Positions 802 through 64,000 of a DNA stretch of 64,000 nt are shown in pieces. Within the stretch, counting starts at the first letter, position 1. Every line of letters begins with the position of its first letter. This DNA is from a virus. Lineage: Duplodnaviria > Caudoviricetes. The notes under the pieces were generated by a model. The model saw only the letters and a list, made by a program, of their open reading frames with translations, did not search any database and was not told the DNA's origin. Location: positions 96,001 to 160,000 of the IMG/VR virus record IMGVR_UViG_2595698668_000001; one strand, written 5' to 3'. A program made the position numbers and the translations under genes.

Positions 802-2364
802 TTAGTTATCCCAAGGCGCGTCGTCTTCATGTGTTTGTTCAGCAAGGAGATCGTTGAAGTCAACTTCTGTTTTACTCATACGGCGTTTGAACATAGAACC
901 ACCCATCGGAGTAGTATCAATTTCATCAACAACTTCCGGAGTTACTTCTACAGGAACAGAAGTAATTTCATCACCACGACGAACAATAACCGCATCGTCT
1001 TGAATATCAGAACGTTCTTCCAGATCCTTCCTTTCGAATACAACAGTATATGGAGTTGTTTCGTCAAGGTCAGACCAACGCATTTTAGCTTTTTCTACAA
1101 CCATACAGAATTTATTATGGGTGTTGATATCGCCATAACGAGATTTAAGTTGCTTAAACAACTGTTGTCCCATCTGTACCAGATCTTCATCTTCTGAAAT
1201 TGCCAATACGAAGTCGCAACCATGAAGAAGTGCATAAGAATCTGCAATATCAGCTTTGTCGATCTCAAGGGAACCAGAAGACCCACGGTTGGTTTGTGCA
1301 CCAGACCAAGCAACAATTTTCTTCTCGATAGCAAGTCCACGTACTTCTTCTGAAATTGCCTTGATGAAAGAGTAAGAGTTATCAGAGAACTTCATACGGG
1401 ACGAAGCCATGATACCTAGGTAGTCTACCATGATAACATCTGGCTTGAAACCTTTTTTCATTTCAAGCTCATCCATCAGGTTTCTGATGTGGTTTACGTT
1501 TGCCCCTGATGTTGGGAACTGTTTGACATAAAGCTTACCAAGCTTTTTACCTGCAACCTTTTTGTTGAACCGGTTCATGAACTCAGATTTTTGGATAAGC
1601 CCACTATCTAGCTCGTCTAGAGTCAGATCCATTAGGTTTGCGTCGATACGCTTACCTACAGTCTCTTCTGACATCTCAAACGAGACGTACAACACGTTCA
1701 ACCCGAGTTGCATATACTCAGTTGCAAGGTGACACAGACCGATAGACTTACCAACGCCAGTACCGGCTAGAATAACGTTCAGTGTACCACGTTCAACCCC
1801 ACCCTTGGTGATCCGGTTCAGCATATGATTCAGGAAAGGGATCTTATTTGTCTTTTGGTTATATGCTTCCCAACGTTCTTCTGCGCTGTTCATATAATCA
1901 TGACCAACATCAAAAGTAAAGCCAACAGACATAGCCTTTTTCATGATCTCTTGCATTGCCCCGATATCTTTTATTTTCGGGTCTTGCTCATCCAGTGGTT
2001 TGGCGAAGTTTTCACGGATCTGGATACACTCAGATAATGCGATATCGATAGCACGTTCTTTACAGAAAGATTCTGTTTCTTCAATCAACCAGTTTTTATC
2101 TTCTGGGATTTGTTCAATTCGAGATACCAGAACTTTAGTCTGATCATACTCTACTTGACTCATATTCTGTTTGCGTTCCAGCATAACATCCAGAGCCGCA
2201 ACCGATGGGGCTTTGTTATGCTTTTTTGCATAGGTATCAATCAAGTCAAATGCAATACGATAAGGCCCCTTAGAGAAATATTCAGATTTAAGAAAAGGGT
2301 ACACCTTACCAAAATACTCGCCGTTGAAAACGAGGTTATTGATAATAATTTGTGAAATACTCAT
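802..2364 (-). CDS. 41: replicative DNA helicase gp41 with acidic C-terminal extension
   Basis: Walker A AGTGVGKS, VDYLGI, AQTNR, KSRYGD motifs; synteny; ATG at 2364 chosen from RBS spacing. Confidence 0.97.
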   Translation of the reverse strand: MSISQIIINNLVFNGEYFGKVYPFLKSEYFSKGPYRIAFDLIDTYAKKHNKAPSVAALDVMLERKQNMSQVEYDQTKVLVSRIEQIPEDKNWLIEETESFCKERAIDIALSECIQIRENFAKPLDEQDPKIKDIGAMQEIMKKAMSVGFTFDVGHDYMNSAEERWEAYNQKTNKIPFLNHMLNRITKGGVERGTLNVILAGTGVGKSIGLCHLATEYMQLGLNVLYVSFEMSEETVGKRIDANLMDLTLDELDSGLIQKSEFMNRFNKKVAGKKLGKLYVKQFPTSGANVNHIRNLMDELEMKKGFKPDVIMVDYLGIMASSRMKFSDNSYSFIKAISEEVRGLAIEKKIVAWSGAQTNRGSSGSLEIDKADIADSYALLHGCDFVLAISEDEDLVQMGQQLFKQLKSRYGDINTHNKFCMVVEKAKMRWSDLDETTPYTVVFERKDLEERSDIQDDAVIVRRGDEITSVPVEVTPEVVDEIDTTPMGGSMFKRRMSKTEVDFNDLLAEQTHEDDAPWDN

Positions 2365-2383
2365 TAAAAACACCTGTAAAAAG

Positions 2384-2429: not shown

Positions 2430-2436
2430 TAATTAT

Positions 2437-2952
2437 TTATACAACCTTTTTCTGTGAGGAAAAATGAAGAATACCGGTATCATTCAGCACGAACGGTACA
2501 TCGTCCTCGGTGATGATATGCATCCAGAACCTAGCCTTATATTTGTATTGACGAACCCGTTTTACCCGATTCACAACACCACCATCAGGAGTACAATATT
2601 GAGCTGCATATAGAGCCTGATAGGGGCTCTTGCGGTCATATAGACTCAGAACTTGATGGTTCTCTGCACACAACCAAGATTTCCCGTTAGACATATGGAT
2701 TTCCCATACGTTCGGGTTGACCGGTTCTGTGAACTCCGTATCGACCATACGTAAGATCGTTGCGTATTTACCGGTTTCTGGTCCCTTTAGAAGGATCCGG
2801 TTGCCCTGTTGAATCTCTAGAAGTTGATATAGAGTCCATGTTTGTTCCCTCATGTCCCCATAAATGTCGGGAGCGCAAAAGGTAACAAGGGTATCCTCTG
2901 GAAATCCAGTTACATCATAACAATCATTACGGTCGCAGGTTTGTTCTGTCAT
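2437..2952 (-). CDS. stand-alone degenerate Hint (intein-like) domain protein, 171 aa
   Basis: GFPEDTLV (block A-like), VWEIHMSNGKSWLCAENHQVL (block B-like), MHIITEDDVPFVLNDTGILHFS (block F/G-like); AAGGA RBS before ATG 2952. Confidence 0.65.
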   Translation of the reverse strand: MTEQTCDRNDCYDVTGFPEDTLVTFCAPDIYGDMREQTWTLYQLLEIQQGNRILLKGPETGKYATILRMVDTEFTEPVNPNVWEIHMSNGKSWLCAENHQVLSLYDRKSPYQALYAAQYCTPDGGVVNRVKRVRQYKYKARFWMHIITEDDVPFVLNDTGILHFSSQKKVV

Positions 2953-2953
2953 T

Positions 2954-3244
2954 TTATTTCCTTTTGAAAAGATCAAGAAAACGCCCAAAGAAAGATTTTT
3001 CAATCTCAACATTGGTTTGGTTATACATGGCTTGTACTGCATTTTTAACATGTGGATATAGTTCTTCCTTCATGTCTTCATGTGGGGTACTCCAATCTAA
3101 TACAACCTTTCCATCATGATACTGTATATCGTTGATAAACACAAGAAAATTCTCACTATCAATCCGGATAACCAATTCGGTTTGTACATTCTTTAATGCG
3201 TCATTGATTACATCTTTATAGGTATCTTCGTTTATTTCTTCCAT
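2954..3244 (-). CDS. 40: head vertex (portal) assembly chaperone gp40
   Basis: ELVIR...VFINDIQYHDGKVVLDWSTP...ELYPHV matches gp40 pattern; position between uvsX and gp41. Confidence 0.85.
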   Translation of the reverse strand: MEEINEDTYKDVINDALKNVQTELVIRIDSENFLVFINDIQYHDGKVVLDWSTPHEDMKEELYPHVKNAVQAMYNQTNVEIEKSFFGRFLDLFKRK

Positions 3245-3285
3245 ATATTACCTGTAAGAAATAGACCTAGTTTCCTAGGTCATTG

Positions 3286-3717
3286 TTATTTAGGGATGAT
3301 ACTAACCTTGGCATTACAAGAGGCTGCAACAGGATAAACTATTTCATCAAAATACTTTTTATTTTTGAAACCATCTAATACCAAAAGATGACTATAGGAG
3401 AACCCTTTTAGTCCTAATGGGTCTCTTACTAAGACGAAATACGATTCGTTTTCAAGTTTTATGTATTTTGAATTTGAGGCCAAAACGAATTCATCACCAA
3501 AAATATTACCCAATTCTTTTAATTGATATTTTATCTCATTGAATATAGTTCCATTCATTGGTTCCATAACAATGGTTTTTCTCCCTTGGGAATTAAAATA
3601 ACAATCATGAACAGCAGCCGAAACTGGGGTATCCTGAACTCCGATGTGAGTCAAATAAAAACCATAGTCGTTACGAAGATTAATAAACAATTCTACTATT
3701 TCTTTTGTTAAATTCAT
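3286..3717 (-). CDS. degenerate terminase large-subunit ATPase-domain-like protein, 143 aa
   Basis: Collinear similarity by eye to this window's gp17 ([78 protein letters not shown]); AGGA RBS before ATG 3717. Confidence 0.6.
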   Translation of the reverse strand: MNLTKEIVELFINLRNDYGFYLTHIGVQDTPVSAAVHDCYFNSQGRKTIVMEPMNGTIFNEIKYQLKELGNIFGDEFVLASNSKYIKLENESYFVLVRDPLGLKGFSYSHLLVLDGFKNKKYFDEIVYPVAASCNAKVSIIPK

Positions 3718-3752
3718 AATAATCCTATAATGGGGCTTTCGCCCCAATAATA

Positions 3753-4862
3753 TTAACCAAACAACTGGTCAACTTCATCAAACACTTCCTGAGATACTTC
3801 AACTGCTTTCAGTTTATAAGCGTCGGATACCGCATCCATAAAAGGCTTGTGAGAAAACATAGGTTTCCAGAATTCCAGAGAGTTGGAATCCTCTTCTGTC
3901 CATTTCTTTTCATCATCGGTGATCAGATACATCTCGCCGGTTTCAAGGTCGAGATAATTTCGCTGATAACGTGCGTTTTGTGGTTTGGTAACAAAACCAA
4001 GTTCTTGTGCAATCTTTAGCAAACCAGAGTATGTATTAATACCACCTTGGAAGGAAACTTGCAAGTCTAATTTGGATTTTTCTTTGATAGTGCGGCTCTT
4101 TTCCGCATTCATCACAAAGTTATAACCCAACAGCTCTTTACCATCTTTATCCTGTTGCTTACCAAGAATGATAACGGTGTCAGCGGAATACATCGGACCA
4201 GTACCACCAGACATAACAGTTTTGCTGTACATCTCTTGGGTTTCGTATGTGTGGTTTACAGCAATACACGGAATGTCGTTGACAGTCAGGTAAGGAGTAA
4301 CCATACGGAACAGACTCTTAATCTGCTTTGCACGGGTCATATCCTGTGCAGACTTTTCATTCTTCGCATCTTCTAGTTCTTTCTTAGAAGCAACGTTACC
4401 AATAGAGTCAATATAGATAATAACCTTATCACCACGTTTGACTGCTTCCAGTTTCTTAACGATGTCGAATTTAAGTTCTTCTACGTCAATAAACGGACAA
4501 TGTACAACCCGTTCAATATCCACACCTTGAGAAGTAAAATAATCAGGAGTAGAACCAAATTCGTTATCAAAGAAAAGACAAACTGCATCTGGATACTTAC
4601 GAAGATAAGCAGAAACCAGAACCAAACTCAAGTTAGATTTGAAGTGTTTAGATGGACCGGCAATACAAGTCAGACCCGGCTTCAAACCACCATCAAGATG
4701 ACCACTCAACATCAGGTTAATGATCGGGACACGAGTCCGGATTACATCCTTGTCGTTAAAGAAAACGCTATCGGATAGCATAGAACTCATTTTATTTGAG
4801 GAAGTACCAGACAGACGTTCCAGAAGGGCACCAGTATTAACCGTTTTTGCTTTTTTAGCCAT
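3753..4862 (-). CDS. uvsX: RecA-like recombinase UvsX
   Basis: AGPSKHFKS Walker A, IDSIGN, DMTRAK, SGGTG motifs. Confidence 0.98.
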   Translation of the reverse strand: MAKKAKTVNTGALLERLSGTSSNKMSSMLSDSVFFNDKDVIRTRVPIINLMLSGHLDGGLKPGLTCIAGPSKHFKSNLSLVLVSAYLRKYPDAVCLFFDNEFGSTPDYFTSQGVDIERVVHCPFIDVEELKFDIVKKLEAVKRGDKVIIYIDSIGNVASKKELEDAKNEKSAQDMTRAKQIKSLFRMVTPYLTVNDIPCIAVNHTYETQEMYSKTVMSGGTGPMYSADTVIILGKQQDKDGKELLGYNFVMNAEKSRTIKEKSKLDLQVSFQGGINTYSGLLKIAQELGFVTKPQNARYQRNYLDLETGEMYLITDDEKKWTEEDSNSLEFWKPMFSHKPFMDAVSDAYKLKAVEVSQEVFDEVDQLFG

Positions 4863-5367: not shown

Positions 5368-6543
5368 TCAACCAAACAAGTCATCCAGAGAAAAATTCGC
5401 GGGACTTTCTTGTTTCCACCCAATAGCATCACAGATATTACCAAGTGGCTTTTGGAAGTGTTTACAATACATACCAACGAAATCAATATCTTTTTCCGGA
5501 TTAATTCCGAATTCGTCTGGGATCTTATCACCGGAAGGCCAAGCAATAGTTTCGATATGATATTTATTCGGAACCTTCAACATTGCATACTGAATTTTTT
5601 CACCGGAACGGATTGGGTCAACGTAGGATACCGATTTCAACTGATCACAAATCTTGTTGTAGTTAATAGCTGCTTTAACGTGACCGGGACAACCAGATTT
5701 ATGATTGAAAAATTCGTCTGAGTTCTTTTCAATATTATTTGCGCTACTTACTTGTGCAATCTTACGATAATCCTGTTTTGGATATTCACCCTTTACCTTG
5801 TCAACGTGAGCATGGAGATTTGTTTCATTCTCAGTCAAAATGATGTCAATCGCTTTTTCAAGACATTCTGACGCAAAAGGTGGTGTACTGCTGCGGCGTG
5901 TTTCGATACCCATAATCTTGAGCTTTGGAACTACGTTACCATGAGAGTCTAGCTTTCTCTTACCTTCGTTATCCCACACAGAAAGAGCATATCGTTTCTT
6001 AGCGGTCCAGAACCCACGAGTTGCGATTACTTCACGGTCCATGAACAATTTATGATCGAAATAGTTCATGTAATCTTTCAGTTCGCGATAACATTCATCG
6101 ATATATGGCTCAATCATATTCTTTGCAAACTTATCAAGCATATCAACCCATTTAATAGGTTCGACATCCTCAATCTTAACACCTTTCTTGTCTGCCATCA
6201 TTTTAACGAAGTTTTCAACACAAACATATTGGGAGTCAGTATCACAATAGATAACGTAGTCTACGTCTTCTGTATTACACAGCTTATTGAAATATTCATT
6301 CGTTTTTCTGGCAATCCATTTAATGGATAGCTGACCACCCATCGTAATTGATTCTGCCATTCTTAGATCATAATAGCGACCCACTGGATGACCCAAAGAC
6401 CCATAAAGAGAGTTGATCAATACCTTTTTTGCTTGTTGGGTTACGTTACATACTTTCTCATATTTCCGACAGTCAGAGATGAGCTTTTTCAGCTCATCGT
6501 CTGTCATATTTTCCAATTGTTCATCGGTATAATCTAGATTCAT
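5368..6543 (-). CDS. 43B: DNA polymerase C-terminal subunit gp43B
   Basis: KKVLINSLYG (motif B), YCDTDS (motif C), KKRYAL, C-terminal clamp-binding SLDDLFG. Confidence 0.96.
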   Translation of the reverse strand: MNLDYTDEQLENMTDDELKKLISDCRKYEKVCNVTQQAKKVLINSLYGSLGHPVGRYYDLRMAESITMGGQLSIKWIARKTNEYFNKLCNTEDVDYVIYCDTDSQYVCVENFVKMMADKKGVKIEDVEPIKWVDMLDKFAKNMIEPYIDECYRELKDYMNYFDHKLFMDREVIATRGFWTAKKRYALSVWDNEGKRKLDSHGNVVPKLKIMGIETRRSSTPPFASECLEKAIDIILTENETNLHAHVDKVKGEYPKQDYRKIAQVSSANNIEKNSDEFFNHKSGCPGHVKAAINYNKICDQLKSVSYVDPIRSGEKIQYAMLKVPNKYHIETIAWPSGDKIPDEFGINPEKDIDFVGMYCKHFQKPLGNICDAIGWKQESPANFSLDDLFG

Positions 6544-8063
6544 TTATCATTCCTCTTTGCCAAGATTGCAGCAGCTCTAGTTGCAAGGGCATCAGCTTTA
6601 AACTCTTCGGTCTTGGCTTGTTTCCGTTGGACAAACACCTTCTCAACTTCAATAGGAAGGAAACCGCGTTTGTCATTTCGATAACGAACACCATTTGGGG
6701 CGACGGAATATTTACCTTCATGAGGAACATCAAACGTCTTGTTAACCAAACCCATACCTTCAATATCCGGAACCATGCGGTCTTTAACCAAGATACGAGG
6801 GAAGTCAATCTGATCAACCAAAGTCTCGGGAGAAATATTCTTACCCATGATTTCGTGTGGATAAAGCGAAGTCAAGTCAAACGACAGAAGCCATTCATAC
6901 AATCCCGGAATCGGATCCTTAACATACGCACCCGCAAACTTAGACCGTTGAGCGTGTTTGTTTTCTGGAATAATCACGTTGTTGGCAAGGAGACTGTTAT
7001 AAATGATAGCATCCCAAGTTTTCAACGGACTGAATACGTCTGGTGCGTTGATACTCGCATAATAGGACACAGACGCAATCAGGAATATCAAACTCAAGGT
7101 TTCTTCCAGTCGTTTGATAATTTCAACGTCTCGAATAGAGTAATCGATATAAGTTTGTGGATCCTTTTCAGCAAACATCAAGTAAGTTTTATAAGTCATT
7201 TCGACTTTATTTGTTTTCAGTTCTGCTTCCGCAATCGTATCTAGTTTATAGTTTGGTCGAGTGGTAAAAGTAAACTTCTTATATGCTGCCATGAAGTCAA
7301 CACAGTTTACACCTTGGATAGTGTAGGTGGTGTAATCTTCATCGTTGTCATCCTTTTGGGTGATCTCTGTAGTCTCACCAAATGGACTCAGCTTATGGAT
7401 AAATTTTTCACCAAGGACTTTTTTAATACGACCCATGATATAGGGAATATCAAAAAACTCACTATTCCACCCACTAAGATAATGTGGTGTATTCGTACAG
7501 AAAAAGTGCATGAACTTAATCAGGATTTCTTTTTCAGAACCACACAAAACATATTCCACATCATCGAGAACTTTTTTATCTAGAATAGATTTACATGCAT
7601 CCCATTCACGGATAGTCCAGATATAATATTTTTTTGATTTGGTACTATAGATCTGAATGGTATCTATTTCATACTTAGTTTCTTCTGCTTGTGGGAAAGG
7701 TCCATCAGTTGGGACTTCGATATCCAAAAACATAATATCAAGATATGTATAGTCATAATACACATTAGAACCGTAAGTATCAGAGATATATTGGAATGTG
7801 TAATTATCCATACCCAATACGTCTTTTCCCATAGACTGCATGTCTTTAAACCATTTCCTAGCTTCACCAACAGAATCTAGTTTCTTGGGCAAACAACGCT
7901 TACCGAAAATATCCCGATACGGAGTCTCAATATGATCACCAACATGACGATACATAGTTGGTTCATATCTAACCTTTCGGATCTTATCATTACCGTTATC
8001 ATCGAAATACCGGTCATAAATGGTATTTCCATCTAGCCAAACACTTGTATAAAAATTCATCAC
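6540..8063 (-). CDS. 43A: DNA polymerase N-terminal subunit gp43A (exonuclease + motif A)
   Basis: DIEV (ExoI), GWNSEFFDIPY (ExoII), YSIRDV (ExoIII), SFDLTSLYP (motif A); stop overlaps 43B start as ATGA. Confidence 0.96.
   Translation of the reverse strand: MMNFYTSVWLDGNTIYDRYFDDNGNDKIRKVRYEPTMYRHVGDHIETPYRDIFGKRCLPKKLDSVGEARKWFKDMQSMGKDVLGMDNYTFQYISDTYGSNVYYDYTYLDIMFLDIEVPTDGPFPQAEETKYEIDTIQIYSTKSKKYYIWTIREWDACKSILDKKVLDDVEYVLCGSEKEILIKFMHFFCTNTPHYLSGWNSEFFDIPYIMGRIKKVLGEKFIHKLSPFGETTEITQKDDNDEDYTTYTIQGVNCVDFMAAYKKFTFTTRPNYKLDTIAEAELKTNKVEMTYKTYLMFAEKDPQTYIDYSIRDVEIIKRLEETLSLIFLIASVSYYASINAPDVFSPLKTWDAIIYNSLLANNVIIPENKHAQRSKFAGAYVKDPIPGLYEWLLSFDLTSLYPHEIMGKNISPETLVDQIDFPRILVKDRMVPDIEGMGLVNKTFDVPHEGKYSVAPNGVRYRNDKRGFLPIEVEKVFVQRKQAKTEEFKADALATRAAAILAKRNDK

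Positions 8064-62517: not shown

Positions 62518-64000
<1,483 letters not shown>

Follow-up and report, generated by a model that had tools for sequence, protein, structure and literature searches.

ORF143 of T4-like Aeromonas phages, a free-standing homologue of the large-terminase ATPase core that lacks the catalytic motifs

The window analysed here, a stretch of 64,000 nucleotides (positions 96,001 to 160,000 of IMG/VR record IMGVR_UViG_2595698668_000001), comes from a T4-like Aeromonas phage of the Emmerichvirinae and encodes on its minus strand, between uvsX and gene 40, an open reading frame (ORF) of 143 amino acids, ORF143. We find that ORF143 is homologous to the ATPase core of the large terminase gp17, has lost the catalytic motifs of that core and is nonetheless conserved, syntenic and under purifying selection; very probably it is a stand-alone paralogue of gp17 ATPase subdomain I that has lost its catalytic capacity. 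An earlier note on this DNA, based on inspection of the sequence by eye, had described the ORF as a degenerate copy of the terminase ATPase domain and a candidate decoy for terminase-sensing immunity. The ORF, its dead terminase-like core and its conservation are borne out by the analyses below, and the decoy proposal is weighed against the alternatives in the Discussion.

Results

ORF143 is homologous to subdomain I of the gp17 ATPase

Using hhalign, we compared a six-sequence alignment of the ORF143 family (A1) with 17 gp17 sequences (A2) and obtained a match of 85% probability and E 6.2e-6, in which residues 36-135 of ORF143 correspond to residues 199-301 of gp17. With three GenBank orthologues added to the ORF143 family the E value was 2.3e-6, and when the terminase core was represented more diversely, by a profile of 30 IMG/VR sequences with identities as low as 39%, the match reached 96.7% probability and E 3.3e-10 over 104 columns (36-141 on gp17 199-309), a result that a profile of the five distant family members alone reproduced (E 4.6e-10). 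Column-shuffled controls never attained the real scores, neither in the gp17 comparison (0/200; 45.7 versus a maximum of 23.8) nor with the diverse profile (0/150; 65.8 versus a maximum of 22.1), and reversed-profile controls scored 12-17. Among the 112 stop-to-stop frames of at least 100 amino acids in the window, the gp17 fragment ranked first (score 40.9, 98 columns) and the second-best frame scored 26.7 over 17 columns, gp17 alone giving a long high-scoring match. An independent MAFFT run reproduced the hhalign register, and across its 36 sequences seven columns are invariant (G26, F41, E61, N82, N90, G105 and P129). The four segment pairs that the earlier note had matched by eye between ORF143 and gp17 are thus real and collinear.

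Searches with single sequences or library models did not reveal this relationship. BLASTP of ORF143 against gp17 was not significant and did not recover the register, and the Smith-Waterman score of ORF143 against the gp17 ATPase segment was matched by 179 of 1000 shuffles. ORF143 belongs to no Pfam family and matched no Pfam terminase model at E up to 10; together with the hhalign E value of the diverse profile, this indicates that the similarity to terminases is visible only from profile to profile. The sole Pfam entry returned was DUF6945, at E 0.072 and short of its cut-off. The protein is a member of phrog_20104, to which PHROG assigns no function (hidden Markov model E 2e-84; residues 3-142 against positions 1-141 of 141). 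Sequence searches of the PDB with the protein and the family profile returned chance-level matches to PapC usher, Rrp43 and a sialyltransferase (E 0.3-1.8). In the ESM Atlas, GpA_ATPase, Terminase_6N and TerL_ATPase are among the closest named clusters, at 0.85, which we take as a lead only.

The predicted fold is compatible with this assignment. AlphaFold2, supplied with a hybrid alignment that included terminase cores, gave a model with a predicted local distance difference test score (pLDDT) of 85.2, and the BFVD model of a 138-amino-acid protein of 48% identity, taken as an orthologue, fits it with template modelling (TM) scores of 0.83/0.86. In the MAFFT alignment ORF143 is 18% identical to the gp17 of its own phage and 21-23% identical to distant terminases. 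Since the identity to its own gp17 is no higher than that to distant terminases, ORF143 is an old, maintained copy and not the product of a recent duplication.

Motifs retained and lost

Relative to gp17, ORF143 retains the N-terminal 'TxE..E.(F/W)..R.D' helix, the post-P-loop helix, strand 2, helix 2 and the 'NGS' hairpin, as well as the K/R-G loop, the Walker B strand, helix 3 and strand 4, secondary-structure details that are predicted from the alignments and models. A segment of about 40 residues that bears the adenine-binding motif and the P-loop strand is missing from ORF143, and so are the Walker A Lys/Thr, the Walker B Asp, the coupling motif (motif C), subdomain II and the nuclease. 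The N-terminal residues 4-21 were placed by MAFFT and by greedy hhalign on gp17 residues 128-145 (the 'WTxEM..EW..CRDD..YF' helix), directly ahead of the gap of about 40 residues. This placement is supported by a related family from Acinetobacter phages, described below, which matches the ORF143 family from residue 3 to 114.

The alignments confirm that the Walker A GKT, the Walker B DE pair and the nuclease domain are missing, as the earlier note had stated. G26 is invariant and is placed, with low confidence, on the column of the Walker A Gly, but none of the 9 family members has a Lys there and no GK[TS] occurs anywhere in the ORF143 protein; at the Walker B site D115 occupies the column of the catalytic Glu of gp17. 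The C-terminus reads ...VSIIPK where terminases have ...I(L/T)T(S/T)TPNG, so that the T/S-T/S-T coupling motif after strand 4 is not present, and the protein stops at residue 143, with gene 40 next, leaving no RNase H-like nuclease domain. What is kept in 9/9 family members is a basic residue (K/R) followed by an invariant Gly at positions 104-105. The same column holds R in the P74-26 terminase structure 4zni and A in 4znj, an entry titled R139A, and R139 of the P74-26 terminase is described in PMC5727402 as a trans-arginine finger; K104-G105 may therefore serve as a finger in ORF143 as well. Having lost the P-loop and the catalytic motifs, ORF143 cannot bind or hydrolyse ATP in the canonical manner, and it probably acts by binding a partner.

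Distribution, synteny and selection

Relatives of ORF143 were found in 15 phage records, all from Aeromonas phages, the closest being AS-zj, AS-sw and AS-yj (98.6% protein identity), and in two metagenomic proteins, P0006 (46% identity) and P0007 (33%). The IMG/VR search returned 2 loci and a scan of metagenome contigs returned none; an exhaustive phmmer search gave 5 matches at E up to 1e-3, comprising one near-query (99% identity), two relatives and two repeat proteins judged spurious. The gene was not found in T4 or in most T4-like phages. Where it occurs, the order uvsX, ORF143, gene 40, ORF171-homologue, gene 41 is maintained in 7/7 loci (window counted), and the adjacency to gene 40 that the earlier note had pointed out holds in all of them.

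The note had named lack of conservation and decay in relatives as results that would speak against it. The reading frame is intact in the window and in 5/7 relatives' loci whose DNA was read, and the partial match in Assk, an unverified record, has no interruption other than runs of N, whereas the copy of phage 65 (L006, the IMG/VR copy of GU459069; NC_015251; match 3001-3427) is frameshifted after about residue 59. This frameshift may be an artefact of sequencing or a genuine loss of the gene; in the sister phage 65.2 the gene is intact.

Across related phages, an analysis that the earlier note had proposed, the ratio of nonsynonymous to synonymous substitution rates (dN/dS) of ORF143 was 0.22, 0.26, 0.21 and 0.23 in four unsaturated pairs, and the synonymous excess was significant with approximate site counts (Fisher p 1e-4 to 8e-8). 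ORF143 is therefore under purifying selection. The neighbouring genes gave 0-0.055 in the same pairs, and the dN of ORF143 is 10-30 times theirs. Over 9 sequences, 22 residues of ORF143 are invariant; of the 25 positions at which clade members differ, 11 fall at residues 91-120, around the K/R-G loop, and 1 falls at residues 1-30.

Phages 65.2, P19 and G2 have an extra ORF of 110-118 amino acids (L001:2148-2504, L010:2665-2997 and L011:2665-2997) after uvsX, which overlaps or abuts the start of their ORF143 orthologue; it is not found in the window phage. We considered whether it could complete a split ATPase and rejected this, since the translated copies of 65.2 and P19 contain no P-loop motif (no GK[TS]).

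Genomic context and expression signals

On the minus strand, the genes run in the order gene 43 (two pieces), ORF134, uvsX, ORF143, gene 40, ORF171 and gene 41 (Table 1). A pattern scan found no promoter-like site in the spacer between uvsX and ORF143 and no TATAAATA late-promoter motif upstream of ORF143. Given the shortness of this spacer and the lack of either signal, ORF143 is likely co-transcribed with uvsX and expressed early or in the middle period. Gene 17 lies about 59 kb away, in agreement with the earlier note's remark that the ORF is far from it; the gp17 reading frame is interrupted by the end of the window, and the complete protein (P0010) has 639 amino acids.

Table 1. Positions of ORF143, its sites, its neighbours and the aligned segment of gene 17 in the window
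Feature	Position	Strand	Remarks
uvsX, recombinase, upstream neighbour of ORF143	3753-4862	-	probably co-transcribed with ORF143
Spacer from uvsX stop to ORF143 start	3718-3752	-	35 nt
GGGGC-GAAA-GCCCC hairpin	3732-3745	-	inside the uvsX-ORF143 spacer
AGGA Shine-Dalgarno sequence	3723-3726	-	5 nt before the ORF143 ATG
ORF143 (phrog_20104; 143-aa pseudo-ATPase, gp17 ATPase-core homologue)	3286-3717	-	ATG 3715-3717, stop 3286-3288
Walker A site, codons G26-V27-Q28	3634-3642	-	against terminase G-K-T (MAFFT); placement of low confidence
Putative finger-loop site, codons K104-G105	3406-3411	-	aligned with gp17 'VRG' (T4 R245) and the P74-26 R139 position
Walker B site, codons L114-D115	3373-3378	-	at the columns of Walker B Asp and catalytic Glu; DE pair gone
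Terminator-like hairpin, then TATTTCTT	3264-3281	-	right after the ORF143 stop, ahead of gene 40
Gene 40, head vertex assembly chaperone (PF11113), downstream neighbour of ORF143	2954-3244	-	
ORF171	2437-2952	-	between gene 40 and gene 41
Gene 41	802-2373	-	
Gene 17 segment, gp17 residues 199-309	63511-63843	-	aligned to ORF143 residues 36-141

Three further observations concern the neighbours. The sole TATAAATA T4-type late-promoter motif of the uvsX-41 cluster lies at 2434-2441 (-), at the 3' end of ORF171 and about 60 nt upstream of gene 41. ORF171 (phrog_16672) is kept in all relatives, shows zero nonsynonymous change among the close ones and has no Pfam match at E up to 1. Gene 43, for the DNA polymerase, consists of two ORFs (507 and 391 amino acids) that overlap, at 5368-6543 and 6540-8063 (-), and the same split is annotated in relatives.

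A probably related family between genes 16 and 17 of Acinetobacter phages

The BFVD search also matched a 140-amino-acid protein of Acinetobacter phage AbTZA1 (AZU98653; TM 0.64), whose gene was located by a genome profile search directly between gene 16 and gene 17 (L094:1432-1854 (-), equivalent to MK278860.1 115138-115560). With this protein as the query, tblastn returned 64 records, 63 of them named Acinetobacter. In the six loci that we inspected (L094 and L097-L101), the ORF encodes 140-152 amino acids and overlaps or abuts genes 16 and 17 in every case, and among the 40 matches listed from the 64 records of the family, 33 overlap an annotated small-terminase gene. GenBank labels the ORF 'similar to gp17' in Acj9 (Acj9p176) and 'putative DNA packaging protein' in several other records.

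Against the terminase core, the Acinetobacter family gave E 1.8e-15, with an explicit 39-column gap where ORF143 has its deletion; here, too, Walker A and the DE pair are gone, while the K/R-G is present in 6/6 sequences. Compared directly, the Acinetobacter and ORF143 families match at E 1.5e-5 over 108 columns (residues 3-114 on 2-113) without large gaps, a score reached by 0/100 shuffles, and the single AbTZA1 protein matches the A1 profile at E 2.2e-4. The two families thus share their size, the direct junction of the gp17 N-terminal helix to the post-P-loop helix and the same deletion of about 40 residues. They differ in that the Acinetobacter ORF sits inside the terminase operon and ORF143 between uvsX and gene 40, in that the former is closer to gp17 and escapes BLAST and phmmer searches that start from ORF143, and in that the C-terminal thirds do not align. 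From these comparisons, the two families likely, although not certainly, form one superfamily of truncated 'mini-gp17' proteins.

In the genome of the window phage, another ORF, of up to 112 amino acids (L009:2689-3027, -), fills the interval from gene 16 to gene 17 and overlaps the end of gene 16. By eye this ORF appeared terminase-like ('PRGSF...'), but single-sequence hhalign comparisons with the terminase core, ORF143, the Acinetobacter family and vs.8 gave no significant similarity (E 0.05-0.46). Several related T4-type terminases (P0046, P0048 and P0050; L080, L083, L086 and L087) measure 700-780 amino acids or have match spans that are about 0.7-1 kb too long, one of them with a LAGLIDADG Pfam domain; the over-long gene 17 relatives look like carriers of intein or homing-endonuclease insertions.

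The genome also encodes a vs.8-like protein

T4 vs.8 is a homologue of the gp17 ATPase that retains Walker A and B and is toxic together with EcAvs2, according to PMC13601566. In a family alignment that we built, the vs.8 family matched gp17 at E 3.8e-4. Its hhalign match to the ORF143 family was not significant (E 0.16, 13 columns), and neither was that of the single T4 vs.8 protein to ORF143 (E 0.36 with the A1 profile, 2.9 with BLASTP). Outside the window, the genome carries a vs.8-like gene of its own, encoding 184 amino acids with GRQTGKT, IIIDEP and the ...GMQ C-terminus of that family (L008:1477-2031 (+), about G000:C1:202244-202798). On the strength of the insignificant match, the missing Walker motifs and this separate gene, we ruled out that ORF143 is the vs.8 orthologue. 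As the genome has its own vs.8-like gene in addition to gp17, ORF143 constitutes a third terminase-ATPase-like gene, an additional paralogue.

Discussion

Based on these comparisons, we tentatively favour the view that ORF143 docks on the terminase and caps or regulates it without hydrolysing ATP. As partner we would expect gp17 or the vs.8-like ATPase of the same genome; docking would use the retained inter-subunit 'donor' face that carries K104-G105, and the docked protein would cap or tune terminase oligomerisation or ATPase activity around head assembly. A modulation of packaging or head assembly, the alternative in the earlier note, gains support, because a family of like truncated build is found between genes 16 and 17 in 6/6 Acinetobacter loci; head assembly and packaging are suggested both by the location of this sister family in the 16-17 operon and by that of ORF143 next to gene 40.

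Several points weigh against this picture, some of them touching the homology and others the function. The N-terminal match to gp17 128-145 was not significant on its own (51 of 200 shuffles reached its score), the homology between the Acinetobacter and ORF143 families is moderate (probability 79%), and the deletion of about 40 residues that they share could be convergent. The AlphaFold2 model from the six-sequence family-only alignment was poor (pLDDT 51.6) and was left out of the fold search, and the gp17 matches of the hybrid-alignment model do not count as independent evidence because its alignment contains terminase cores. ORF143 stands outside the terminase operon and, as it follows uvsX by 35 nt without a late-promoter motif upstream, is probably made earlier than gp17. 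Between the window and P19, ORF143 has a dN of 0.082, and its neighbours uvsX, gene 40, ORF171 and gene 41 have values of 0-0.003; such fast evolution, in a gene whose range is one phage subfamily plus metagenomic relatives, is more in keeping with a gene in conflict with the host than with a core factor of packaging.

These last features are those expected if ORF143 acted at the immune interface, by mimicking the terminase ATPase fold and engaging Avs1-3 or Upx as a non-activating sponge or inhibitor, or as an anti-defence protein that some sensors detect, a proposal that extends the decoy of the earlier note and that we regard as rather unlikely. It would accord with the rapid, lineage-restricted evolution of the gene, its probable expression with uvsX ahead of the late genes and the clustering of variable sites around the K/R-G loop; sensor binding by small terminase-like proteins has published precedent, and an anti-defence role is raised as one possibility in the Discussion of PMC13601566. 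The small terminase-like proteins tested in the available texts, however, all activate Avs2 and none blocks it (Ksap2, PMC11564622; T4 vs.8, PMC13601566), and recognition by EcAvs2 is described there as using terminase-bound ATP and a bridging ATP (PMC13601566), whereas ORF143 has no P-loop. The known anti-Avs proteins that we found (the ORF55 ligase and the Rossmann-like ORF83) are not terminase mimics, and the Acinetobacter family adjoins genes 16 and 17, so that the argument from expression before gp17 falls for that family. It is equally doubtful that ORF143 is a binding module for a partner unrelated to terminase or terminase sensing, such as one of the recombination or replication proteins encoded in the uvsX-41 cluster or a component of the gene 40/portal assembly pathway, with the terminase fold merely reused as a scaffold. 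The position between uvsX and gene 40, kept in 7/7 loci, would fit such a role, as would the finding that the best-conserved part of the protein, the N-terminal 30 residues (1/30 sites varies in the clade) and the G26-D29-P31 loop, has no significant terminase match alone; but gene order is a weak functional guide in T4-like phages, and the retained residues are terminase-typical (NGS, K/R-G and the Pro that starts helix 3).

A functionless, decaying relic of a partial gene 17 duplication would explain why all catalytic motifs are lost, why the phage 65 copy is frameshifted and why T4 and most T4-like phages have no ORF143. We consider this highly improbable, given a dN/dS significantly below 1, a frame that is intact in most loci and interrupted in Assk only by runs of N, and an identity to the phage's own gp17 so low that the copy must be old and yet retained. 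Unlikely, too, is a further reading, in which ORF143 and the Acinetobacter proteins would form an undescribed 'half-site' superfamily of terminase pseudo-ATPases. Such proteins would have kept the trans-finger donor face and lost the nucleotide-accepting face; by capping a gp17 subunit ORF143 could set when the packaging motor fires, and as a terminase fold without bound ATP it could occupy Avs2/3 or Upx without triggering them. If true, this sensor occupation would be the first structural-mimic decoy against bacterial pattern-recognition immunity.

The free-standing terminase-ATPase look-alikes vs.8 and Ksap2 have lately emerged as ligands of pattern-recognition receptors in bacteria. ORF143 offers a naturally ATP-blind version that keeps the putative inter-subunit finger loop, and a single phage thereby provides a three-way comparison between the active motor gp17, a Walker-intact vs.8-like paralogue and the dead ORF143, a set that could be used to ask which features Avs/Upx sensors need and whether the paralogues regulate packaging. 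The link to the 64 Acinetobacter records further suggests that packaging modules of T4-like phages repeatedly include a mini-gp17 protein as an accessory that has been overlooked. Stand-alone terminase-ATPase paralogues have already been published (vs.8), and the Acinetobacter ORF is known from annotation. We did not find the ORF143 family, its motif pattern or the Acinetobacter link in our literature searches, although Supplementary Figs 15-16 of PMC13601566 (a vs.8 alignment and a tree of 1240 sequences) may hold relatives, and a literature search for terminase paired with 'pseudo-ATPase' gave no match.

Compared with the ATPase N-subdomain I of T4 gp17 (PDB 2O0H, 3CPE; PF03237 Terminase_6N), ORF143 is a separate gene of 143 amino acids from which the residues and motifs of catalysis, subdomain II and the nuclease are gone. 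With T4 vs.8 it has in common that both are small stand-alone paralogues of the gp17 ATPase in T4-like phages, with an R/K-G loop before the Walker B strand, but the vs.8 family keeps Walker A (GRQSGKT, with invariant G-R-Q-S-G-K) and Walker B (IIDEP, with I-I-x-E-P), and ORF143 has neither. Ksap2 (Bas60_220), which we liken to ORF143 by description, is also a small phage protein with a weak terminase-ATPase-like fold that is confined to one phage subfamily; according to PMC11564622, Ksap2 binds and activates KpAvs2.

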